Part shown: one piece after another, positions 34,318 through 44,228 of the stretch | Layout of the letters: every line of letters starts with the position of its first letter | Numbering within the stretch: position 1 is the first letter of the stretch | IMG/VR virus record: IMGVR_UViG_3300037454_000078 | Coordinates: 1-64,000 of that record | Direction: 5' to 3' (one strand) | Origin: a virus | Taxonomy: Duplodnaviria > Caudoviricetes | DNA: 64,000 nucleotides | Made by a program: the position numbers and the translations under genes | Notes under the pieces: generated by a model | Told to the model about the DNA's origin: nothing | Databases searched by the model: none | What the model saw: only the letters and a program-made list of their open reading frames with translations

Positions 34318-36123
34318 ATGGCAAGCAACGCAACTATCGCACACAGGTTTGCGAACAAAGACAACAATTTTGAGAGAGGACTGAAGGGTTCAAGTGTACA
34401 CATCGAGGGGCGCAACTACTACAGCTATTCGACTGTCTTTGGGCAGTGGGTGGATAAGAAAGTCTGCCTCGTGTATCACGGAGAGACAAGCATCACGTCG
34501 AACGGACATAAGTTGTGGGACGGCGACTTCCCGAAGGACGTGACGCTATTCCCCTACGATGACGGCGGCAGAGGGCCGTATTACAACAACTGGCACGGCT
34601 GCGACCTGCTCGGATGGCGCGGAGAGTTCGACTACGATGCACGCGTCCGACTCATGGACTATTGGGTAGGCGAGATATACGATGCACTTAATGCTATGGT
34701 AGGCGGCAAGAAGAAAGATTTGGACAGCAATGCCACGATTGTAATAGCAGAATATTGGGCATACGTGGAGAAGTTGTGCTCCATGTACAAGGACACGAGC
34801 GTCCCCAAGTGGCTCAAGAAGAAACGCATCGACATGGACGGCATGTGGAAGAAAAAGAAGGTCGTCGTGAAAGCCTTGTACAATGGTGAGAGAGGTGTCG
34901 AAGCGCTTGTTGATGCTGCCTTCGGTCTTGGAACGTACAAGAAATACTACAACTACTGCGCACGCTACCGCAAAGCAGCAGACAAGCGTGCAAAGGTTGA
35001 GGTATTGTGTGAGCGTCTTGGCATTGCAAGTCCTTATGAAAGTTGGAGTCGTGGACGTATGGACACAGGTCTTACAGCCGACCAGATTCGAAAGTTAAGT
35101 GCAAAGGAGCGTCTTGACCTGCACTTTGCAAGCATCATGCGTGACGATGAGCGCAAAGAAGAGAGTGCAGTCGAAGAGAAGTACAACAAGAACTTCCGCA
35201 ACGCTTACAAGTGGATTGTAGGTTTCGAGCCGAAAGAGAAGTGGAACGGCTACGAGAAAGATGTACACAACAACTGCATCAACAAGGACAACGGAGTGGT
35301 ATATGAGTGCAGTGGAGAATATATCTACGGATTCTACTGGTGCGATACAAGCGTGGCTTTCAACTACGATTCTTTCCGCAAGAGCGAGGACAAGGAGCAG
35401 TGGATTGCAGGATTCTATGCAAAGTGCAAAGAGGCTGCGATGAACCGCAAGGCAATCTGCATCCTCAAGCGCATCAATGCACACAAGAAAGAGAAGGAAC
35501 ACTCTTATGACGATGACGTGTATCTTAACGACGACTACCTGCGTGAGAGTACGACAGAGCCAGAGTACATCATCTGTTCTGAGTTCATAGACAAACAGGA
35601 CAAGCACTATGCAGACGAGGAAGCCCGCAAACGTGCTCAGGAGATTGAGCGTCAGCGTCAGGCAGAGGAGAGAAGACGCGAGGAAGAGTATCGTGCAAAA
35701 GTCAAGCAGGAGCAGATTGACGCTTGCCTGTCCCGTGGAACAGAAGGCGCACGTGACTTGTGGCGTCTGCATCTTGCGGAGATATACAAAGCAGAGGGCA
35801 TGAACGACACCATTGGCGACAAGAGTCACGATGACTTCTTTCTCGGTGGCAACGTCCTGCTTCGTCTCAACCTCGACAAGACACACGTGGAGTCGAGCAA
35901 GGGTGTGCGTGTGCCTGTGGCGGTTGCTAAGTTGTGGTTCAAGAAGGTCAAGCAGTGGCACGACGACCCTAAGTCGTTCAAGCCTATTGAGTGGAACACG
36001 AAGGGCAACGGCACTTACACGGTCAGCGAGTACAAGAACGACATCCTGACTGCTGGCTGTCACGACATCGCATACGCAGAGATGGAGCGCATGTACAACG
36101 AGATTGTGTCGCTCGGAATCTGA
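34318..36123 (+). CDS. Large hypothetical early protein, 601 aa
   Basis: Long ORF with typical leader and a coiled-coil segment (EEARKRAQEIERQRQAEERRREEE); no family recognised. Confidence 0.8.
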   Translation: MASNATIAHRFANKDNNFERGLKGSSVHIEGRNYYSYSTVFGQWVDKKVCLVYHGETSITSNGHKLWDGDFPKDVTLFPYDDGGRGPYYNNWHGCDLLGWRGEFDYDARVRLMDYWVGEIYDALNAMVGGKKKDLDSNATIVIAEYWAYVEKLCSMYKDTSVPKWLKKKRIDMDGMWKKKKVVVKALYNGERGVEALVDAAFGLGTYKKYYNYCARYRKAADKRAKVEVLCERLGIASPYESWSRGRMDTGLTADQIRKLSAKERLDLHFASIMRDDERKEESAVEEKYNKNFRNAYKWIVGFEPKEKWNGYEKDVHNNCINKDNGVVYECSGEYIYGFYWCDTSVAFNYDSFRKSEDKEQWIAGFYAKCKEAAMNRKAICILKRINAHKKEKEHSYDDDVYLNDDYLRESTTEPEYIICSEFIDKQDKHYADEEARKRAQEIERQRQAEERRREEEYRAKVKQEQIDACLSRGTEGARDLWRLHLAEIYKAEGMNDTIGDKSHDDFFLGGNVLLRLNLDKTHVESSKGVRVPVAVAKLWFKKVKQWHDDPKSFKPIEWNTKGNGTYTVSEYKNDILTAGCHDIAYAEMERMYNEIVSLGI

Positions 36124-36135
36124 TTCACTATCGAC

Positions 36136-36205
36136 GCGCGGTGGTCATGGCGACTAAGCAACTCTAAAGGTTGTGGCTGAGGGTTCGATTCCCTCGCCGC
36201 TTCAA
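36136..36205 (+). tRNA. Degenerate tRNA-like element; anticodon loop region CTCTAAA (TAA or CTA depending on register)
   Basis: Perfect T-arm GAGGG-TTCGATT-CCCTC, imperfect acceptor stem, 3-bp D-stem, anticodon stem GCAAC/GTTGT; no CCA. Confidence 0.5.
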
Positions 36206-36240
36206 TATGTTTGCTTAATGTTTAGATTGATGCTTTAAGT

Positions 36241-36271
36241 CCTGTGGGTGGTGGTGCTCATCATCCACAGG
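36241..36271 (+). terminator. 13-bp hairpin downstream of the tRNA-like element
   Basis: CCTGTGGGTGGTG-GTGCT-CATCATCCACAGG, followed by a weak CAATTTTCT tract. Confidence 0.5.
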
Positions 36272-36339
36272 CAATTTTCTAAACATTGGGCGACGAAAAA
36301 GACAATTCACATTATTAACAAATAAAACATTAAAGCATT

Positions 36340-37390
36340 ATGGGACTGACAGAAACACTGAAAGAACAGTTGAAAAGCGAAGACGAAAAGGTAATGCAAG
36401 ACGCAAAAGATTGCCTTGCTATTGCCGAGAAACTCAAGGAGATAAACGGTGACGGCGCTATATGGTCGAGTCAGTGGCGTGTACTCGCGGACGTACGATG
36501 GGTCGGAAAGTACCCAGACTGCACAAAGTTGTACAGACCGAGCAAGATTGGAGAGGTTTTTCTGAAAGGTATTAACGCATAAAACATTAGCATTATGATT
36601 GAAAAGATTTGGTTAGTTACTCAAGAAAGTAACGTTGATGGAGAAATTATGTTCAATGTAGTCCCTTGCATAAGCGAAGAGACGGCAAAGAAAGTAATGC
36701 AGGACGAGATTAGAACGTTGTTGAATGAGAGCCACTTTATCGCTTTCATAGACAGACCTGACGACTTTATTCTTGAACAGACGGAGACCTCGTACTATAT
36801 CGAGGACACCTGTGACGACTACTACGAGGACATCAATATTGAAGAGAAACAAATTCAGTATTAACTATGGCAAAAGTAATCCTTACCGATGCTATCATCA
36901 ATGAGATGAGCATCAGAGAAATCAACAGGCACTTCCGCAGCGAGGACGAGTCGGACAAGTGGCCTATTTGCGGAAAGTTCAACGTGACCGAGAGAGCCAT
37001 CCGAAAGCTGCGCAAGTTTCGCCATGACGGACTCTGTGTAAGCGAGGGACTTGAGTACTACCTCACCCTTGAGAATATGATTGGAGAGATTGTAAACGAC
37101 GAGAGAAATTGGTAATAACATAAAACATTACGACTATGATTACAGTAAAGAAGACAACTTACGAAGTTGAAGGCTGCAAAGAGCCATGCTTCGAGGTTAC
37201 GGACGGATTCACAATGGTACGAATCGCAAAGATGTACCACTACATCGGAAAAGACACGCTCGCCATGTCTGAGTATCTTGACGGAGAATGGAACAGTTCA
37301 GACGAATGGACTGGCGACTTCGACTCCCTCACGGCTACAGAAGCAAAGAGACTTGCACAAGAGTATAGCGTATATCTCAGTAAAAATTAA
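36340..37390 (+). CDS. Four small early genes (36340-36582, 36595-36864, 36867-37115, 37136-37390)
   Basis: Packed co-oriented ORFs with AACATT..GCATT-ATG leaders; 36595-36864 is strongly acidic. Confidence 0.65.
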
Positions 37391-37403
37391 AAACATCAGC
37401 ATT

Positions 37404-37799
37404 ATGGAGACAACAATCAATTACAACGGAACGGAAATTATTCTCTACGGGAATTATGTTGGTACTGCAACACCTTGGGGTGAGAAGTACGTCAAGCAGC
37501 ATTTTGAGATTGACGTGACAATCAACAACAGAACTGTTACGTTCGACTTCTACTGCAATGACTCATACCTTGACGACGAGCAGTTGTGCGAAGCATTCTA
37601 CTACTTTCTGTCTGACGGCATTTCATACGACAATGCACGCGACGTTGACGATTTCCAGAGCGAGTTTGGCTACGAGAAAGTTTCTGAATGTCTCGAGGCT
37701 TACAACGGGTGCAAGGATTCATTTGAGCAATGGAAGAGCATCACAGACATCGACATCTACGAGATTGCAAACTGGTTACAGGACAAGTATAACTTTTAA
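37404..37799 (+). CDS. Acidic hypothetical protein (anti-defence candidate)
   Basis: Start METTINYNG at 37404; D/E and aromatic rich. Confidence 0.65.
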   Translation: METTINYNGTEIILYGNYVGTATPWGEKYVKQHFEIDVTINNRTVTFDFYCNDSYLDDEQLCEAFYYFLSDGISYDNARDVDDFQSEFGYEKVSECLEAYNGCKDSFEQWKSITDIDIYEIANWLQDKYNF

Positions 37800-37813
37800 A
37801 ACATTTAAGCATT

Positions 37814-38092
37814 ATGAAGTACATTTGCGAGTGCAGCCTCGAGGACTTCGAGGCATGGTCAGGCGGCAAGGACACGCTTGACACTTTGAGAGAAAAGGGT
37901 GACTGCGATGCAGTCGAGTCGTTAATCGAGGAAATGATGTGTTGTCAAGAGGAGCCGTGGAATGACACTGGCATCAACGACTTCCTGTGGTTTGAGCGTG
38001 ACACGATTGCAGAGCATCTTGGCTACAGAGACTGGGATGAGTATGAGTACGGAAACGAAGAAGAGGAAGATGAAGAAGATGAGGAAGATTGA
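37814..38092 (+). CDS. Highly acidic small protein (DNA-mimic/antirestriction candidate)
   Basis: 92 aa, FEAWSGGKDTL...INDFLWFE, ends EEEEDEEDEED. Confidence 0.65.
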   Translation: MKYICECSLEDFEAWSGGKDTLDTLREKGDCDAVESLIEEMMCCQEEPWNDTGINDFLWFERDTIAEHLGYRDWDEYEYGNEEEEDEEDEED

Positions 38093-38174
38093 TTGGGAGT
38101 TCGTCGGAGGGCTTGTGTGCTGCATCATAATTTTGGCGCTCACATGGGCTTTCCTTTGCGTAGCGTACGCATGA
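38079..38174 (+). CDS. Small membrane peptide (31 aa)
   Basis: MRKIDWEFVGGLVCCIIILALTWAFLCVAYA. Confidence 0.45.
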   Translation: MRKIDWEFVGGLVCCIIILALTWAFLCVAYA

Positions 38175-38218
38175 ATATAATAATTAATATATAAATAATT
38201 AATAAAAGCATATACATT

Positions 38219-39124
38219 ATGGAGGATTATGTAAAGAGATACGTCACAAAGGACGGAAAACAGAGATTAACGATATATCGTGACGAGCATGCAGACAATC
38301 CTCGTTACAATACTGACGAGCCGTTGCACTGCGAAGACTGGTGTCGCGAATACTCCATCATGGACAAGAAAGATTGTGAGACGAAGTCAAGCTCTGCTCT
38401 GGAGCTCATCAGATACTTGCTCGAGAAGTACGGCAACGTGAAAGAGATGGTCGGAGTGCTGCGAGAGAACGCGAAGAAAGAGACGCACGCAAACGGTGAC
38501 ATGAAGCTCACGTACGACGCGTCGCGACACGAGTGGATTCTCAGCTACTGGATTGATAAGTGGACAGACTACAGCGGAGAGATTCACGGGAACAGATGGA
38601 GCGAAGAAACGTCGTGGAGCTCAAAGCTGAAAGACTTGGACGCATACGACATCGCATCTTACTTGTCAAAAGAGATGATTGAAGAGTTCGCAGACCAGAA
38701 GTACTTCACAGACGCAGTGAAGATTGGCTCGTACGAGTTCAGATACTATGGCTATATAGTCTTCTACGACGAGTTCAACGCGAAGTCTGACGGTATCTGC
38801 TGGCTCGAGAAAGAAGAGTTCTTGAAGTACTCTGGCTGCAAAGAAGAGTACTGGAAGTCGAAGACGCTGAAAGAGATTGAGTGGCTTTGCGAAGAGATTA
38901 CAGCGTGGTCAGAGGGAGAAGTGTACGGATATGTGGTCGAGAACGCAGTGAGAATACAAGGTGTCAAGACGTACTTCGACGGAGAACGTGAGGACGAACC
39001 GTACGTAGAGGAACAATGGGAGGAAGAAGATTCCTGCTGGGGATTCTACGGAGAACTAGACAAGTCTATCGACTGGATACTTGAGACTGCAGGGTTCAAG
39101 AAAGAAGAACTAATCGAAGAGTGA
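38219..39124 (+). CDS. Acidic Trp-rich hypothetical protein, 301 aa
   Basis: DEHADNPR N-terminus and WSEGEVYGYVVE...DSCWGFYG C-terminus. Confidence 0.75.
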   Translation: MEDYVKRYVTKDGKQRLTIYRDEHADNPRYNTDEPLHCEDWCREYSIMDKKDCETKSSSALELIRYLLEKYGNVKEMVGVLRENAKKETHANGDMKLTYDASRHEWILSYWIDKWTDYSGEIHGNRWSEETSWSSKLKDLDAYDIASYLSKEMIEEFADQKYFTDAVKIGSYEFRYYGYIVFYDEFNAKSDGICWLEKEEFLKYSGCKEEYWKSKTLKEIEWLCEEITAWSEGEVYGYVVENAVRIQGVKTYFDGEREDEPYVEEQWEEEDSCWGFYGELDKSIDWILETAGFKKEELIEE

Positions 39125-39125
39125 C

Positions 39126-40580
39126 ATGAGTTTAGAGAAAATAAAGATTACGTATGATAGGGACGGTGTGTATGATAAAGATTCTGTACACGAAGTCATG
39201 GACGTGATTGAAAGCTATTGCAGTTGCGCTACAGACAAGAGCTTGGTTGACTATATTGAAAGGATTCCAATTCCGTCTGCCATCGCATTCATTGCAGACG
39301 CATGGGGACTTAATTACGAGTTTGTTTAAAAATTAAAACATTACAATTATGCTAAGAGTAAACTATCAGATTGAGTACGGCTCAGTCAAAGTTAAGAACA
39401 ACGATAAGACGAAGGTTCTCACGGTGAAGATACATCAAGCCAATGCGCTATGCGCATTCATCTATCACTATCAACGCGAGGACGGTCAGAGAATGGCTCA
39501 GCTGTGGAGCTTCCTCTGTGACCTCAACCACGCAAAGAGACTCATCAAGAATACATCAGACCACACGCTGCTCGGAACGTCTGTCGTCAGCGTCAAGCTG
39601 AACGTCTACTACAAGGAAGCCCGCCAGCTCATCATGCCGATGGCTCAGAGCGGATACAAAGTGACAGTTTATTACAAAGAACCCAAAAAGAAGTAATTAT
39701 GGCAAACAAGTTATCGTTCATCATCAAGAAAGATGAAAACGCCGAACCGCGCAACAGATACATACTGTCAGTCAAAGTGTATGGTAAGTGTGTAATTGCG
39801 CCGAGATACGAAGAATTGAACTCTGCTCTTTTTGAAATTCCTGTTTGGGTTAATGAGTTCAGCAAAGACTCGGTTGAATACGATATAAAGGTAAGATTAT
39901 GAAAACACTTGAGTTCAACGGCAAATCTTATATTCTCAATCAGTGCAAGGATATATGGAAGTGGTTCTCTGAATCGAAAGTCGGTGAGTACACTCGGTTC
40001 TTCTCTCGTGCCGTGTTCCATACGGAAGACGGATTCTATGCAGCATATATTGACGATTTAAGCAACTATGCAAAGGTATAAATATTATGAAAATTGACAG
40101 TTACATGATGAGCAACGAGGAAGTCTTGAGGGCTCTTCGCATGTTCAACGATGAGATATGGGACGACGGCAAGTATCACCTTGTCAGCGTCGAGAGTATT
40201 TGGGAGAACGGAGAAAAAATAGAAGACTTCATTAAAGGAAACAACGAGTCTGAAATTCCAGAAGAAATCTTAAAGCAGATGTACAGATTTGTTATGGAGT
40301 TCGACAACAACTGGCTTGTCTACGTGTCATACATGGACGGAGAGGTTTTCGGAATCATCGCATTCAGCGAGTGGTATTAATAATTAAAGCAACAAGAATT
40401 ATGAAACTTACAGAATTTTCAGTATCAATCGACATAGTTGTGTCAAAGACAATCTATGTCGATGCCGAGAACGAGGAACAGGCAAAGCAGCTCGCCATCA
40501 AGAAAGTGCGCGACGAGCCGTTCTACTATGCACGTACCGCAGATGCGTACGTCGGAGCAAAGGTGATTGATGTTTATTGA
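39126..40580 (+). CDS. Six small hypothetical genes (39126-39329, 39349-39696, 39699-39902, 39899-40081, 40087-40380, 40401-40580)
   Basis: Packed co-oriented ORFs. Confidence 0.6.
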
Positions 40581-40599
40581 AGTTAAAAGTGTTAAAATG

Positions 40600-40631
40600 C
40601 TTGCAAGGTTTAAATATTTAAAGTAACTTTG
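40600..40631 (+). promoter_or_regulatory. Promoter CTTG-N20-TAACTTTG with palindrome TTTAAATATTTAAA (40609-40622) in the spacer
   Basis: Read directly from the sequence. Confidence 0.65.
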
Positions 40632-40656
40632 CGGCGTCAATTTAAAGCATTAAGTT

Positions 40657-40833
40657 ATGGATGTAAGAATAAAGTATAAATCAGCAAAAAATGCGCAGGA
40701 CGCAGCAAGTAAGCTGCCAATAGCATGCAGGTTCTTGATTGTTACAGACAAGACAACAGATTGCTATTTGCAAATTCCAGAAGAATACGAGGACTACGTA
40801 ATGAATTTCTTAAACCCAGACAAGTATGTGTAG
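40657..40833 (+). CDS. Small hypothetical protein (58 aa) coupled to the recombinase
   Basis: Manually translated MDVRIKYKSAKNAQDAASKLP...; leader TTTAAAGCATTAAGTT-ATG. Confidence 0.55.
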   Translation: MDVRIKYKSAKNAQDAASKLPIACRFLIVTDKTTDCYLQIPEEYEDYVMNFLNPDKYV

Positions 40834-41665
40834 GGTATTCTTATACAGCCGCATCAGTACAGACCAGCAGTCTCTTGCACAACAGGAGAGGACTGTATAC
40901 GAGTGGCTTGGCCGCAACAACATGTCAGTCACTGACGTTGTGAGCGACGAGGGAATCAGCGGTGGCGTGTCGTATAAGGAACGCAAGCTTGGAAAGGAGC
41001 TGCTTCCGATTATGATTGCTGGCGACATGCTCATCGTATCAGAGATTTCACGTCTTGGACGTTCGATGTTCGACCTCAGTAAGCTTATCAACGAGGAGTT
41101 GAAGCCGCGTAAGATTCGTCTTGTTGTGGTAAGTATGGGACTGGATTTGCGATGCGACCATATCACTGCGCTGGACGAACTGATTCTTCAGAACTTCTCG
41201 TTTGCCGCCCAGTTGGAGAAGGAGCTTATAAGCAGCCGCACGCGCTCTGCGCTTGAAGTGAAGAAGAAACAGGGCATTAAGATGGGCGCTGCGTCTGACA
41301 TCTATAAATCAAACAAATCAAAGAAGAGTAAAGAACAGATAGGTAAAGAGATTATGCTTAGAGGCAGGATGAAGAACAAGAGGCACATGGAGTCGAAGGA
41401 AGCGCAGATGTTCCTCAAAGCACTGAAGAAAGCGTTCCCAGAGTACTGCGAGGACGAAGACTTCACGAAGTGGGATTGGGAATTGGGTCTGCGTCTTCGT
41501 TGCGGAAAACTTGAGAAGCTGGTCGAAGTTATGAAAGACATTCACGACGTAGACCAGACAGTCTTTGCCAAGTGGCAATTTGACAGTCCTTTGCTTGCCC
41601 GCCGTCTGCGTGCCCACATGCAGCAGTTCAAGAAGAGTGTAAAGAATTATTCGTCTAACAACTAA
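40826..41665 (+). CDS. Serine recombinase (resolvase/invertase family)
   Basis: Catalytic motif YSRISTDQQS, then DEGISGG and AGDMLIVSEISRLGRS, and helix E (ELISSRTRSAL). Confidence 0.92.
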   Translation: MCRVFLYSRISTDQQSLAQQERTVYEWLGRNNMSVTDVVSDEGISGGVSYKERKLGKELLPIMIAGDMLIVSEISRLGRSMFDLSKLINEELKPRKIRLVVVSMGLDLRCDHITALDELILQNFSFAAQLEKELISSRTRSALEVKKKQGIKMGAASDIYKSNKSKKSKEQIGKEIMLRGRMKNKRHMESKEAQMFLKALKKAFPEYCEDEDFTKWDWELGLRLRCGKLEKLVEVMKDIHDVDQTVFAKWQFDSPLLARRLRAHMQQFKKSVKNYSSNN

Positions 41666-41830
41666 ATAGTACTGCGTATGATTACACTGATGATTATCAT
41701 TACCATCATTCTGCGTCCAGACATTCTGATAAAGATGGGAGGTCGCGGATTCAGAAAGTAGCGTTCACTATCTGCAACGCGAGGGTGGGTGGTCGGCAAA
41801 CATTTATTAACAACTAAAAACAAGAGAATT

Positions 41831-42142
41831 ATGGAAACAACAACGAAAATTTGTAAGGTTTGTGGGCGCGAGTTAAGCATCGAAAACTTCTCGAAGCATC
41901 CGAAGACAAGCGACGGTTACTCTTCCGTCTGCAAAGAGTGCATGCACAGGCTGCAGTCCGAAGGTCACAAGAACCAGAAAGAGAACAAGATGAAGGAGCT
42001 CAAGTCTGAAGTCGAGAACGCTCGCAACCTGCGTCTGCAGGACTTCACTCCGAGACAACTGATGTCAGAGCTTGTGAGAAGAGGCTACGAGTTTGAGGCT
42101 ACTTACACTGAAGTACACAAGATTAGTTCAAAAGATTTATGA
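41831..42142 (+). CDS. Zinc-finger protein (CxxC...CxxC)
   Basis: CKVCGRELSIENF......DGYSSVCKEC. Confidence 0.7.
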   Translation: METTTKICKVCGRELSIENFSKHPKTSDGYSSVCKECMHRLQSEGHKNQKENKMKELKSEVENARNLRLQDFTPRQLMSELVRRGYEFEATYTEVHKISSKDL

Positions 42143-42375
42143 TTATGGCAAACATCAACGACAACGAGAAGAGCAGTCTCTCCCAGAACAAGCAGATTGC
42201 AGAGTACCTGAACAACGGAGGAGTGCTTACACAGATGGATGCGCTGAAAATGTTCAATTGCTTCAGACTTGCGTCACGTATAAACGACCTTCGCAACAAA
42301 GGGCTTGACATAGTCACTGAGAAAATAATAACCGCAAGCGGTAAAACGGTTGCGCAGTACAGATTAAACAAATAA
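42139..42375 (+). CDS. Small winged helix-turn-helix protein
   Basis: QNKQIAEYL..GG.LTQMDALKMFNCFRLASRINDLR..G..I. Confidence 0.75.
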   Translation: MIMANINDNEKSSLSQNKQIAEYLNNGGVLTQMDALKMFNCFRLASRINDLRNKGLDIVTEKIITASGKTVAQYRLNK

Positions 42376-42387
42376 ACATCAGAAATC

Positions 42388-43041
42388 ATGAACATCAGAA
42401 TCAAGAGGAACGACTACGTACAGCCTACGGAAGTCAGGGAGAGAATCGTGCAGGACATCTGCGACGTCATGCTGGAATATACAGACAAGCTGTTGCCGTT
42501 GACAGTATTCGCAAAGGACAACGCACTGTATCTCGGAACGACGAAAGACGGACAGTACAAGACTGTCACACACGCTACGTCGAACAGCATCTATGACTGT
42601 GTCAGAATACACGGCACAGAGATGGAGGCAGCATTCAAGGCGTTTCAGGACGCTGGGTACTTCATCTATGCTGAGAAAGACAAGAAGACGCGCAACACCA
42701 CGTACCGCTTCTCCAAGAAGCCCGTTATGTGGGGAATCGCATCCAAGACGGTAGAGTTTGATATGTTTATCGACTAAGTTTAACCAAATAAAAAAACAGA
42801 GAAGATTATGAATAAGGACAGAAGAAACAGAATCTCAAAGTGTATCGAGCAGTTGGAAGACATCAAGACGGAGCTTGAGTATATAATGGACGAAGAGCAA
42901 GAAGCGTACGACAACCTGCCAGAAGGCATCCAGATGTCAGAGCGCGGTGACACGATGCAAGAGTGCGTTGACGGGCTTGACGACGCTGTCAGCAACTTCG
43001 ACGACATCATAGACCAGTTGAACGAAGTAATGGAGAAGTGA
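42388..43041 (+). CDS. Two hypothetical genes (42388-42777; 42808-43041, acidic helical)
   Basis: Co-oriented ORFs with typical leaders. Confidence 0.65.
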
Positions 43042-43196
43042 TATGATAGATTTTAACTGCCAACATTTCAGAAACGATGACGGATGCAGGTGGTGTGACA
43101 AGTTCCACCACTTCATCTGCGACCTGTGCCACGATGACGACGAAGACGACAGTCTCGACAGAATCGAGTACTGAAAAGTTAAATCTTGCAAAGAAA

Positions 43197-43228
43197 CTTG
43201 CAATATTCAAAATGTTGCACTATCTTTG
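43197..43228 (+). promoter_or_regulatory. Promoter CTTG-N20-TATCTTTG with palindrome TTGCAATATTCAAA (43198-43211), driving the tRNA cluster
   Basis: Read directly from the sequence. Confidence 0.75.
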
Positions 43229-43311
43229 CAACGTAATATTCGTATTATTTAATTTTCGTCTTGACTGGTTCAGCCGAGTGCTTGTGAAGGTCGTTAGGCT
43301 GTTTTTTAAAT

Positions 43312-43384
43312 CGCGGGATGGAGTTGTTGGAAGCTCGCAATGTTCATATCATTGAGGTCGGCGATTCGAGTTCGCCTCCCGCTA
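43312..43384 (+). tRNA. tRNA with CAT anticodon (Met, fMet or Ile2); no encoded CCA
   Basis: Acceptor CGCGGGA/TCCCGCT with unpaired position 1:72, anticodon arm CAATG-TTCATAT-CATTG, T-arm GGCGA-TTCGAGT-TCGCC. Confidence 0.85.
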
Positions 43385-43464
43385 CATCTGATTGTCTTTC
43401 ATGATGAAAATGTTTTAAATTGAATCTTAGGCAAGAGCTCGTGAGAGTCAGTAGCCTATTCTTT

Positions 43465-43545
43465 GGGGATGTAGCTCAGTTGGTTAGAGCGCACAGAACG
43501 GCCAGTCTTCTGTGGTGGTCGCGTGTTCAAGTCACGTCATCCCTT
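43465..43545 (+). tRNA. tRNA-like gene with an enlarged (23-nt) anticodon arm
   Basis: Canonical acceptor GGGGATG/CATCCCT, D-arm GCTC-AGTTGGTTA-GAGC and T-arm GCGTG-TTCAAGT-CACGT, but the anticodon arm is CACAGAA-CGGCCAGTC-TTCTGTG. Confidence 0.75.
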
Positions 43546-43547
43546 CT

Positions 43548-43827
43548 ATGAACGAAGACAAGATTGGGTTCGTGTACATCGCAGGAAAAGAGCACGGACG
43601 AGCAACAATAACAAGAGAACAGTACAGTAAAGTTTTGAACATCATCTATGGCAAGGAAAAGGCGTAGGAAAGGCAAGATTCGCATCAGGAAATCGGTTGC
43701 TCTTGTTCATAAGAGCGACGCTACGAGGGTGTCGAAGCCTGATACTACGCGCTATCCACGTATAGAAGGACGACCACCTGCAAGCGTTGCTCCAGTATTC
43801 AGAGTTAAGATAAGGAAAAAACAATGA
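43548..43827 (+). CDS. Two tiny ORFs (43548-43667, 39 aa; 43648-43827, 59 aa, very basic)
   Basis: Manual translation; the second overlaps the next gene by ATGA. Confidence 0.45.
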
Positions 43828-44228
43828 TAAACAAGTTCAGAAGGTTACTTATAAGAATCGGCAAAACTCTGCCATTCATTATTTGTTTTCTTGCTTGTTT
43901 AAATTACTTGGAAATCATGTTTGCTTTGTCGACATGCGACTATCTTGACTGGAATGGTGCAGTAATACCGAACACAAGGATTTCGTTCTTTATCGGTCAA
44001 TACTTTGATTACAATATACAGATGGTTGTTGTATTATGGGTGCTCAGTGTCGCAACGAGCACTTGCATTTACAATAAGCTCGCTTGCTTATATTTGACGT
44101 GTAATTTAGTTGAAAAGTCTTACTATAACACAGTTGAACTGTACCCTGAGCAAGTGGCAGTAATAATCACTATCAACCTGCTCGTCTGCGCTTGGCTGTG
44201 CTGGAAAGGTGTTCAAATGCTAAAATAA
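43824..44228 (+). CDS. Membrane protein (about 4 TM helices)
   Basis: 134 aa, several hydrophobic stretches. Confidence 0.7.
   Translation: MINKFRRLLIRIGKTLPFIICFLACLNYLEIMFALSTCDYLDWNGAVIPNTRISFFIGQYFDYNIQMVVVLWVLSVATSTCIYNKLACLYLTCNLVEKSYYNTVELYPEQVAVIITINLLVCAWLCWKGVQMLK

Follow-up and report, generated by a model that had tools for sequence, protein, structure and literature searches.

A tRNA-shaped, probably non-decoding RNA gene with a remodelled anticodon arm, set flush against a small conserved gene in a phage with rumen-type relatives

The window analysed here is the first 64 kb (64,000 nucleotides) of an 81,434-bp viral record of IMG/VR (IMGVR_UViG_3300037454_000078) that is judged complete. 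On its plus strand, positions 43465-43545 form an 81-nt, tRNA-shaped cloverleaf, which is called by ARAGORN as well as by the Rfam tRNA model. The features of this element and of its surroundings are as follows.

43197..43228 (+): putative Bacteroidota-type promoter, CTTG, 20 nt, TATCTTTG; conserved in loci L012 and L065
43271..43307 (+): hairpin/U-run module, first copy, just 5' of the tRNA-Met-like gene
43312..43385 (+): tRNA-Met(CAU)-like gene with a C1.U72 mismatch, called by ARAGORN only; same putative transcription unit
43428..43464 (+): hairpin/U-run module, second copy, consisting of 5 bp, an internal loop, 4 bp, a GUGA tetraloop and a U-rich run; ends at the 5' end of the mimic
43465..43545 (+): tRNA-shaped, probably non-decoding RNA gene (ARAGORN, Rfam RF00005 at 45 bits, arm-by-arm parse)
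43465-71/43538-44 (+): acceptor stem, GGGGAUG/CAUCCCU, 7/7 pairs, with a G1.U72 wobble and G3:C70
43474-90 (+): D arm, stem GCUC/GAGC, 4/4 pairs; loop AGUUGGUUA (A14, G18G19, A21)
43492..43514 (+): remodelled anticodon arm, CACAGAA/UUCUGUG, 7 Watson-Crick pairs (43492-98/43508-14); 9-nt loop CGGCCAGUC at 43499-43507
43521-37 (+): T arm, stem GCGUG/CACGU, 5/5 pairs; loop UUCAAGU
43545 (+): discriminator U, from the direct parse
43546..43547 (+): CU spacer, equivalent to tRNA positions 74-75; the ATG begins at position 76
43548..43667 (+): orf39, 39 codons, conserved (homologs in about 20 loci), no Pfam match

ARAGORN labels the element tRNA-Trp(cca), with a length of 82 nt (43465-43546). It has the 7-bp acceptor, 4-bp D and 5-bp T stems of a true cloverleaf, and its RF00005 score of 45.0 bits is well above the gathering score of 29. 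In the RF00005 fit the anticodon-arm stretch takes up 22 nt, against 15 expected by the model. The U8-A9 connector is normal, G26 is present, and the variable region is GUGGUC, 6 nt long and ending in C48. The core tertiary set is complete (U8, A14, G18G19, A21, G15:C48, G53:C61, T54 T55 C56 and A58). CCA is not encoded at the 3' end, positions 74-76 being CUA. Compared with a standard tRNA the element is longer by 7 nt, 6 in the anticodon arm and 1 in the variable region. The first-pass annotation, which had described canonical acceptor, D and T arms, a 7-bp stem, the 9-nt loop and the discriminator U, is confirmed on these points by both programs and by the parse. It had also stated that the extra base pairs look selected. 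The pairs themselves exist, the arm adding only two A-U pairs, the innermost ones, to a normal 5-bp stem. Selection on them is not demonstrable here: arm stability is marginal, 15 of 200 dinucleotide shuffles folding as well (z = -1.66), so that selection on the extra pairs cannot be read from the single window sequence. The searches found no homolog of the arm and no similarity to any other arm compared. Likewise, CGGCCAGUC was not found in a tRNA context in IMG/VR, where the six matches to the same loop with any stem are chance occurrences in non-tRNA DNA.

A decoding anticodon arm has a 5-bp stem, a 7-nt loop, U33 and a purine at position 37. In the element the stem has 7 bp, the loop 9 nt, and U33 is missing before either of the two candidate triplets, CCA and GCC; a G precedes CCA. 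Expanded-loop suppressors keep a 5-bp arm and U33 while carrying one or two extra loop bases, whereas here two extra pairs accompany two extra loop bases. As for identity, U73 in place of G73 speaks against Trp and G3:C70 against Ala. The combination of G3:U70 with A73 is an anticodon-independent alanine identity set; with G3:C70 and U73, the window copy lacks this hallmark of tmRNA and alanine acceptors. U73, C35 and C36 are part of the bacterial glycine identity set, and by these general identity rules the element is glycine-like in part, U73 and CC being present and G2:C71 being wrong. Active tRNAs have a 5-bp anticodon stem or, in the exceptional Sec, Pyl, mt-Ser(UCN) and allo-tRNAs, one of 6 bp that is offset by shortening of the connector or the variable loop; a 7-bp stem has, by this rule, no precedent among them (PMC7609411). 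Such compensation is absent in the element, whose connector is normal and whose 6-nt variable region is longer than usual. The element is thus probably a tRNA-derived mimic, not a decoding or recoding tRNA. Both possibilities had been raised in the first-pass annotation. The former gains support from the arm geometry and from related loci (see below), in which GNRA-sealed or unrelated arms accompany a perfect top half. The latter is not supported, given the lack of U33, the uncompensated 7-bp stem (PMC7609411), the standard code and the absence of a Trp or Ala identity set. A third suggestion, that of a decoy for anticodon nucleases, does not hold up either: the loop resembles no tRNA loop, is conserved in no relative and has no above-chance complementary target in the window.

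Several other explanations of the arm were tried and rejected. A stop-codon recoding or suppressor role was discarded because table 11 ORFs cover the window to a high degree and TAA, TGA and TAG are all used as stops, the genetic code of the phage being standard. A mini-intron is contradicted by manual inspection, in which no contiguous 6-nt deletion restores a U33 loop, and by the lack of a ligase or RtcB in the phage. An antisense or kissing target of the loop was dropped since its complement is no commoner in the window than by chance. Finally, the palindromic arm is not taken for an attP site, since the vicinity lacks a tyrosine integrase and has only a serine recombinase (279 aa) 1.8 kb upstream.

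The ATG of orf39 begins 2 nt past the discriminator, only C74 and U75 lying between. Most differences between orf39 and its closest relatives fall at third codon positions (11/17 and 9/14), indicating that it is a real coding gene. Neither a Shine-Dalgarno site nor an open, A-rich leader was found upstream of it, its 5' flank being the tRNA mimic itself; 55 of the 67 genes of the window have no SD-like site and possess A-rich leaders. A highly basic ORF of 59 codons (43648-43827, +; MARKRRRKGKIR...) overlaps the end of orf39 by 20 nt and is conserved in L011, L012 and L065. The genes neighbouring the element have no Pfam match, and a PTH-type cassette was looked for next to it and rejected, there being no PTH, PTH2, ligase or Rsr-type context.

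The hairpin/U-run module occurs in only two copies in the window, one 5' of each of the tRNA-like genes at 43312 and 43465. The copy at 43428-43464 is conserved in L012, L065, L018, L052, L074 and L079, and the module is also seen in relatives that have no tRNA at that place. It has an AAGA-type internal loop, a 4-bp stem with covariation and CAGUA after the GUGA, with the motif ATGTTTTARRTTRAT in front. Its role may be that of a leader hairpin, an attenuator or a protein-binding site. Some 40 nt upstream of its first copy sits the promoter-like box, whose TATCTTTG we take to resemble the Bacteroidota -7 box TAnnTTTG; promoters of the Bacteroidota type are not modelled by a sigma-70 scan. From this arrangement we infer that the promoter box, hairpin, tRNA-Met-like gene, second hairpin, mimic, orf39 and downstream genes would form a single transcription unit. 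Rfam does not report the tRNA-Met-like gene at E<=1. This gene is without the three G-C pairs of initiator anticodon stems. Its counterpart in L012 and L065 is diverged and has C1xA72, acceptor and anticodon stems kept by compensatory changes, and a non-canonical T arm. C1xA72 is a hallmark of bacterial initiators.

Relatives were collected with the 134-aa neighbour gene and orf39 as anchors, which gave 70-odd loci, apart from about 85 Logan/ENA homologs of the 134-aa gene. They come from rumen-type metagenomes; no close relative of the phage was found in the phage database, and a host search found no relatives as prophages in reference genomes. The stretch from the hairpin module to orf39 proves to be a slot with varied occupants:

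L087: a normal tRNA-Gln, 57 bits, 5 nt before the ATG
L057/L065: tRNA-Ala(UGC), then a mimic with a GAAA-capped 10-bp rod as its arm
L032: a mimic capped by GAAA
L018/L046/L052: a mimic with the 8-nt loop CGACUAAA
L070: a mimic with a UUA loop and a poorly paired arm
L066 and L044: mimics of 105-108 nt with large inserts
L012, the closest collinear relative: a decayed 77-nt copy, T arm 1/5, no Rfam match
L074 and L079: no tRNA-like element
L044 (listed here too), L033, L029 and L045: a different structured RNA

Scores on the tRNA model are 54-68 bits for normal clade tRNAs and 36-45 bits for the mimics. An ATG follows N73 by 2-5 nt in seven distinct slot occupants (those of the window, L018, L032, L057/L065, L066 and L070, and the L087 tRNA-Gln). 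The usual junction is N73-C-U-A(UG), sometimes with two or three extra bases. Ordinary tRNAs in the surveyed loci have A-rich trailers and no flush ORF, except for the L087 tRNA-Gln and a tRNA-Met in L062. The latter (L062:938-1009) looks normal, and its discriminator is followed by C-U-AUG of a 62-codon ORF, a second flush junction in the clade. Two things had escaped the first-pass annotation: that the element lies flush against a conserved small gene, and that the tRNA slot is variable.

G3:U70 is found in 6 of 10 parsed slot elements, together with A73 in L018, L052, L032, L066 and the decayed L012, and with C73 in L057. In two phages of the clade the only tRNA that the model detects is an abnormal one; L018 is such a case, its CGACUAAA-loop tRNA being the only one detected. 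The abnormal tRNAs of this type (L018:1927-1997, L046 and L052:918-988) combine G3:U70 with A73, and their loop contains CUA. They are candidates for an alanine-inserting reader of amber or UAGN, or for a non-decoder. The tRNA-like gene of L070 (L070:37-111), flush with the orf39 homolog, is called tRNA-Stop(UUA) by ARAGORN; a suppressor function is doubtful because its anticodon stem is poorly paired.

The top half of these RNAs is kept while the anticodon arm is not. In eight mimics, all 128 acceptor, D and T pairs are standard, with 2-4 pair types at 12 of the 16 positions; the pairs were tabulated from parsed arms. U8 and A14 are invariant in the eight, and in L032 the elbow pair is swapped from G19:C56 to C19:G56. 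The covariation sought among homologs is thus present in the acceptor, D and T stems of the eight mimics; for the window arm the searches gave no homolog to compare. The eight anticodon arms are unrelated in sequence and length; those of L057 and L032 are over-stable relative to shuffles (1/200 and 8/200). Random decay of the arm in homologs would have spoken against the first-pass interpretation. The arm is indeed unconserved between lineages and the L012 copy has decayed, but eight of nine mimics have decayed in the arm only, so the decay is not random.

The L018 and L052 mimics are identical at 68 of 71 nt (96%), with a compensatory change of G1-C72 to A1-U72, and their odd arms agree at 22 of 22 positions, while the neighbouring coding DNA is about 25% diverged. 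Outside the mimic, identity is 36% and 59% in the two flanks, and the start of orf39 has been lost from L052. Between the window and the collinear L012 and L065, orf39 is 86-88% identical and the upstream hairpin module nearly unchanged, while the element is unalignable. The top half is thus kept in structure, the arm is free to vary or is soon replaced, and slot occupants turn over.

Our favoured reading, which we put at a little under an even chance from the sequence arrangement, is that the element is excised like a tRNA by host RNase P and RNase Z, leaving a near-leaderless orf39 message. Selection would keep the acceptor stem, the D and T arms and the elbow, which make up the top half; the anticodon arm would have been turned into a 7-bp/9-nt hairpin unable to place an anticodon in the ribosome. 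Host RNase P would cut at G1 and so remove the leader hairpin, and host RNase Z, or an equivalent pathway for CCA-less 3' ends, would cut at or after U73. The message thus freed would start C74-U75-AUG. Once cut out, the 81-nt RNA would be given its CCA by the host's enzyme and may survive as a stable molecule that has a second role. Genes for RNase Z, a CCA-adding enzyme, RtcB, RNA ligase, PTH and PTH2 are absent from the phage; the lack of the first four implies dependence on host enzymes. A control Bacteroides genome matches the RNase Z and CCA-adding enzyme families.

Excision is proposed because it is the only obvious way to use an ATG located 2 nt from a stable cloverleaf in a phage with A-rich leaders. 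In its favour we count the real cloverleaf, the non-decoding arm geometry, the position of orf39 2 nt after N73 and the recurrence of this junction in the slot. Against excision as the sole role stands the presence of the orf39 family without any tRNA-like element in L074 and L079. Together with the different RNA in L044, L033, L029 and L045, their empty slot indicates that the element is dispensable for orf39. That the closest collinear relative, L012, carries a decayed copy also counts against it, and inheritance, not repeated selection, may account for the flush junction. To our knowledge, efficient leaderless translation is not established in Bacteroidota-type hosts, which we likewise weigh against excision.

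A serious rival is a trans-acting role, since the element is retained in L052 without the orf39 start and is dispensable elsewhere. Here the excised RNA would be a stable mimic working in trans via its top half, and its place before orf39 would be incidental. We regard this as possible, at clearly longer odds than excision. Its targets could be a host defence nuclease that recognises the acceptor/T arm or the CCA end, a modification enzyme or EF-Tu, and some relatives might be charged by AlaRS for non-ribosomal use. The preservation of the L052 mimic and its arm despite the deleted orf39 start argues for a function of the RNA itself, although the identity with L018 could reflect recent recombination, the upstream flanks being unrelated. 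G3:U70, mostly with A73, in the majority of the slot elements matches the alanine set, to which the window copy, as a G3:C70, U73 RNA and hence no alanine acceptor, does not belong. The closely similar mimic of an unrelated phage (L091) does not abut a gene, and the two clade phages with an abnormal tRNA as their sole detectable one also fit a trans role. On the other hand, there is no conserved loop or arm to mimic a specific target and no partner gene (PTH, PTH2, ligase or Rsr-type) in the phage, the neighbours having no Pfam match.

Alternatively, the element could be a young pseudogene, that is, a Pro-type phage tRNA whose arm was replaced or enlarged by insertion in one step, the rest not having decayed yet. 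It would then be without function, and tight packing would have produced the orf39 junction by accident. For this particular copy we regard this, too, as a serious rival, slightly less likely than a trans-acting role. Its top half is about 90% identical to that of a genuine phage tRNA-Pro(UGG) (25/28 and 26/32), its arm is common to no homolog and only marginally stable, and the tRNA content of the slot turns over quickly; the L012 copy has decayed, and the slot of L074 and L079 is empty. However, all 16 top-half pairs and all tertiary bases of the window copy are intact though the normal arm is gone. Moreover, the standard pairs of the family have been kept with compensatory changes, also between close relatives, and the L057 and L032 arms have been rebuilt as stable GNRA-capped rods, not degraded.

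That the element is a working recoding tRNA, a frameshift suppressor or special decoder reading UGG, GGC-type or 4-5-base codons via its enlarged loop, is very improbable: engineered tRNAs with 8-9-nt loops can read 4-5-base codons, and the intact core, the CCA and GCC triplets, the fit of U73, C35 and C36 to part of the glycine set, and the conserved CUA-containing 8-nt loop of L018/L052 with G3:U70 and A73 could be cited for it, but a 7-bp stem with normal connectors has no precedent among active tRNAs (PMC7609411), U33, G73 for Trp and G3:U70 are absent, the code is standard with three stops in use, and the loop is conserved in no relative.

Returning to excision, the closest parallel is provided by the t-elements of plant mitochondria, non-canonical cloverleafs within mRNA precursors, at which RNase Z and RNase P cut and so produce the ends of mRNAs (Forner et al. 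2007, PMC1920247). RNase Z cuts at or one nt after the discriminator, the 5' cut is that of RNase P, and a t-element once released can be stable (PMC1920247). The phage mimics share with them a non-canonical cloverleaf in which the acceptor/T-arm minihelix and the elbow are intact, as the 128/128 pairs attest. They differ in that t-elements are organellar and have mapped RNA ends, whereas those of the phage element are predicted from its position. In addition, most t-element ends lie far upstream of the ATG, while here a 2-nt leader is predicted. We conclude that the element is probably a phage variant of tRNA-like processing elements, as far as sequence and context can tell. In the tRNA punctuation of animal mitochondria, and where bacteria co-transcribe tRNA and mRNA, as in the E. 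coli tufB operon, cutting a tRNA out of a polycistronic precursor defines the ends of the mRNA; in mitochondria the resulting messages are leaderless. Those tRNAs decode, whereas the phage element appears to have lost decoding.

Other comparisons are more distant. The element resembles canonical phage tRNAs such as the tRNA-Pro(UGG) of L088/L090 in its top half and core tertiary bases, and departs from them in an anticodon arm of 23 nt instead of 17 and in scoring 45 bits against the 54-68 of clade tRNAs. With the +1 suppressors sufB2 and SufJ and with quadruplet and quintuplet decoders it shares an enlarged anticodon loop on a normal tRNA body; in contrast to it, sufB2, SufJ and the engineered decoders keep the 5-bp stem, U33 and the parental anticodon with one extra base. 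MALAT1 mascRNA, the tRNA-like/miRNA units of murine gammaherpesvirus 68, T4 stable RNAs C and D, and the bacterial Y RNA YrlA are tRNA-shaped, non-decoding substrates of RNase P, RNase Z or the CCA enzyme, YrlA having a permuted topology with a Ro-binding helix. We know of none of these that abuts a bacterial start codon. The phage element has no sequence or Rfam relationship to any of them; RF00005 is the only Rfam family found over 35900-44000 at E<=1, with no YrlA match. The tRNAs by which phages escape anticodon nucleases carry point changes in 7-nt loops, insertions not being mentioned (PMC10264068). Unlike these (PMC10264068), the phage arm matches no tRNA arm and differs completely between relatives. 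A search of the full-text literature found no phage tRNA mimics with remodelled anticodon arms and no tRNA punctuation in phages.

The scaffold of the element is of the tRNA-Pro/Ala type. Its 5' third resembles the tRNA-Ala genes of relatives, and a chimeric origin (5' part from tRNA-Ala, 3' part from a downstream mimic) was considered. It was dropped since the tRNA-Pro(UGG) of unrelated large phages (L088/L090) matches both halves of the element in a T-arm-anchored scan, at the level given above. The same scaffold is found on an unrelated 25-kb viral contig, L091 (minus strand, 11010-10932), as a sealed-arm mimic with 5 bp and UUUG, a 12-nt variable region and a position 24 nt upstream of an acyl-carrier-protein-like ORF; L089 has another irregular relative. 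It recurs with over-long anticodon arms of 26 and 23 nt in L003:2263-2348(-) and L004:1576-1657(-), respectively. These two phages are unrelated and carry arrays of 20 and 8 tRNAs with one over-long-arm tRNA each. This suggests that such mimics are scattered widely among phage tRNA arrays. The window itself has a third tRNA-like element, at 36136-36204(+). Its T arm is perfect (GAGGG-UUCGAUU-CCCUC), its acceptor is weak (6/7), and the 8-9 connector is missing. The D arm has 4 bp and a 5-nt loop, the anticodon-like arm is GCAAC/GUUGU with the loop UCUAAAG, and the motif ATGTTTAGATTGA, similar to ATGTTTTARRTTRAT, and a hairpin follow; neither ARAGORN nor Rfam calls it.

These observations lead us to a broader, and more tentative, proposal, to which we give less credence than to excision at this one locus. 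In a clade of rumen phages with genomes of about 80 kb, tRNAs in an operon-leader slot would repeatedly have been turned into anticodon-less mimics that keep only what makes them substrates of RNase P, RNase Z and the CCA enzyme. They would act there as t-elements that make a leaderless message, and in the lineages with G3:U70 and A73 they may in addition give rise to non-decoding RNAs that can be charged with alanine and have a role of their own.

As a practical matter, genes of this kind are labelled tRNA-Trp or undetermined, and inflate phage tRNA counts and codon-supplementation analyses. The slot, which in near-identical contexts holds a normal tRNA, a sealed mimic, a decayed copy or nothing, supplies a set of natural controls, and the G3:U70 relatives raise the possibility of charged, anticodon-less RNAs. 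If the proposal is true, phages of gut bacteria use non-decoding tRNA shapes as cut sites for the tRNA-processing enzymes of their hosts. This would be the counterpart, in viruses of prokaryotes, of mitochondrial tRNA punctuation and of the plant t-elements, and hosts that do without Shine-Dalgarno sites would thereby be offered a path to leaderless translation.
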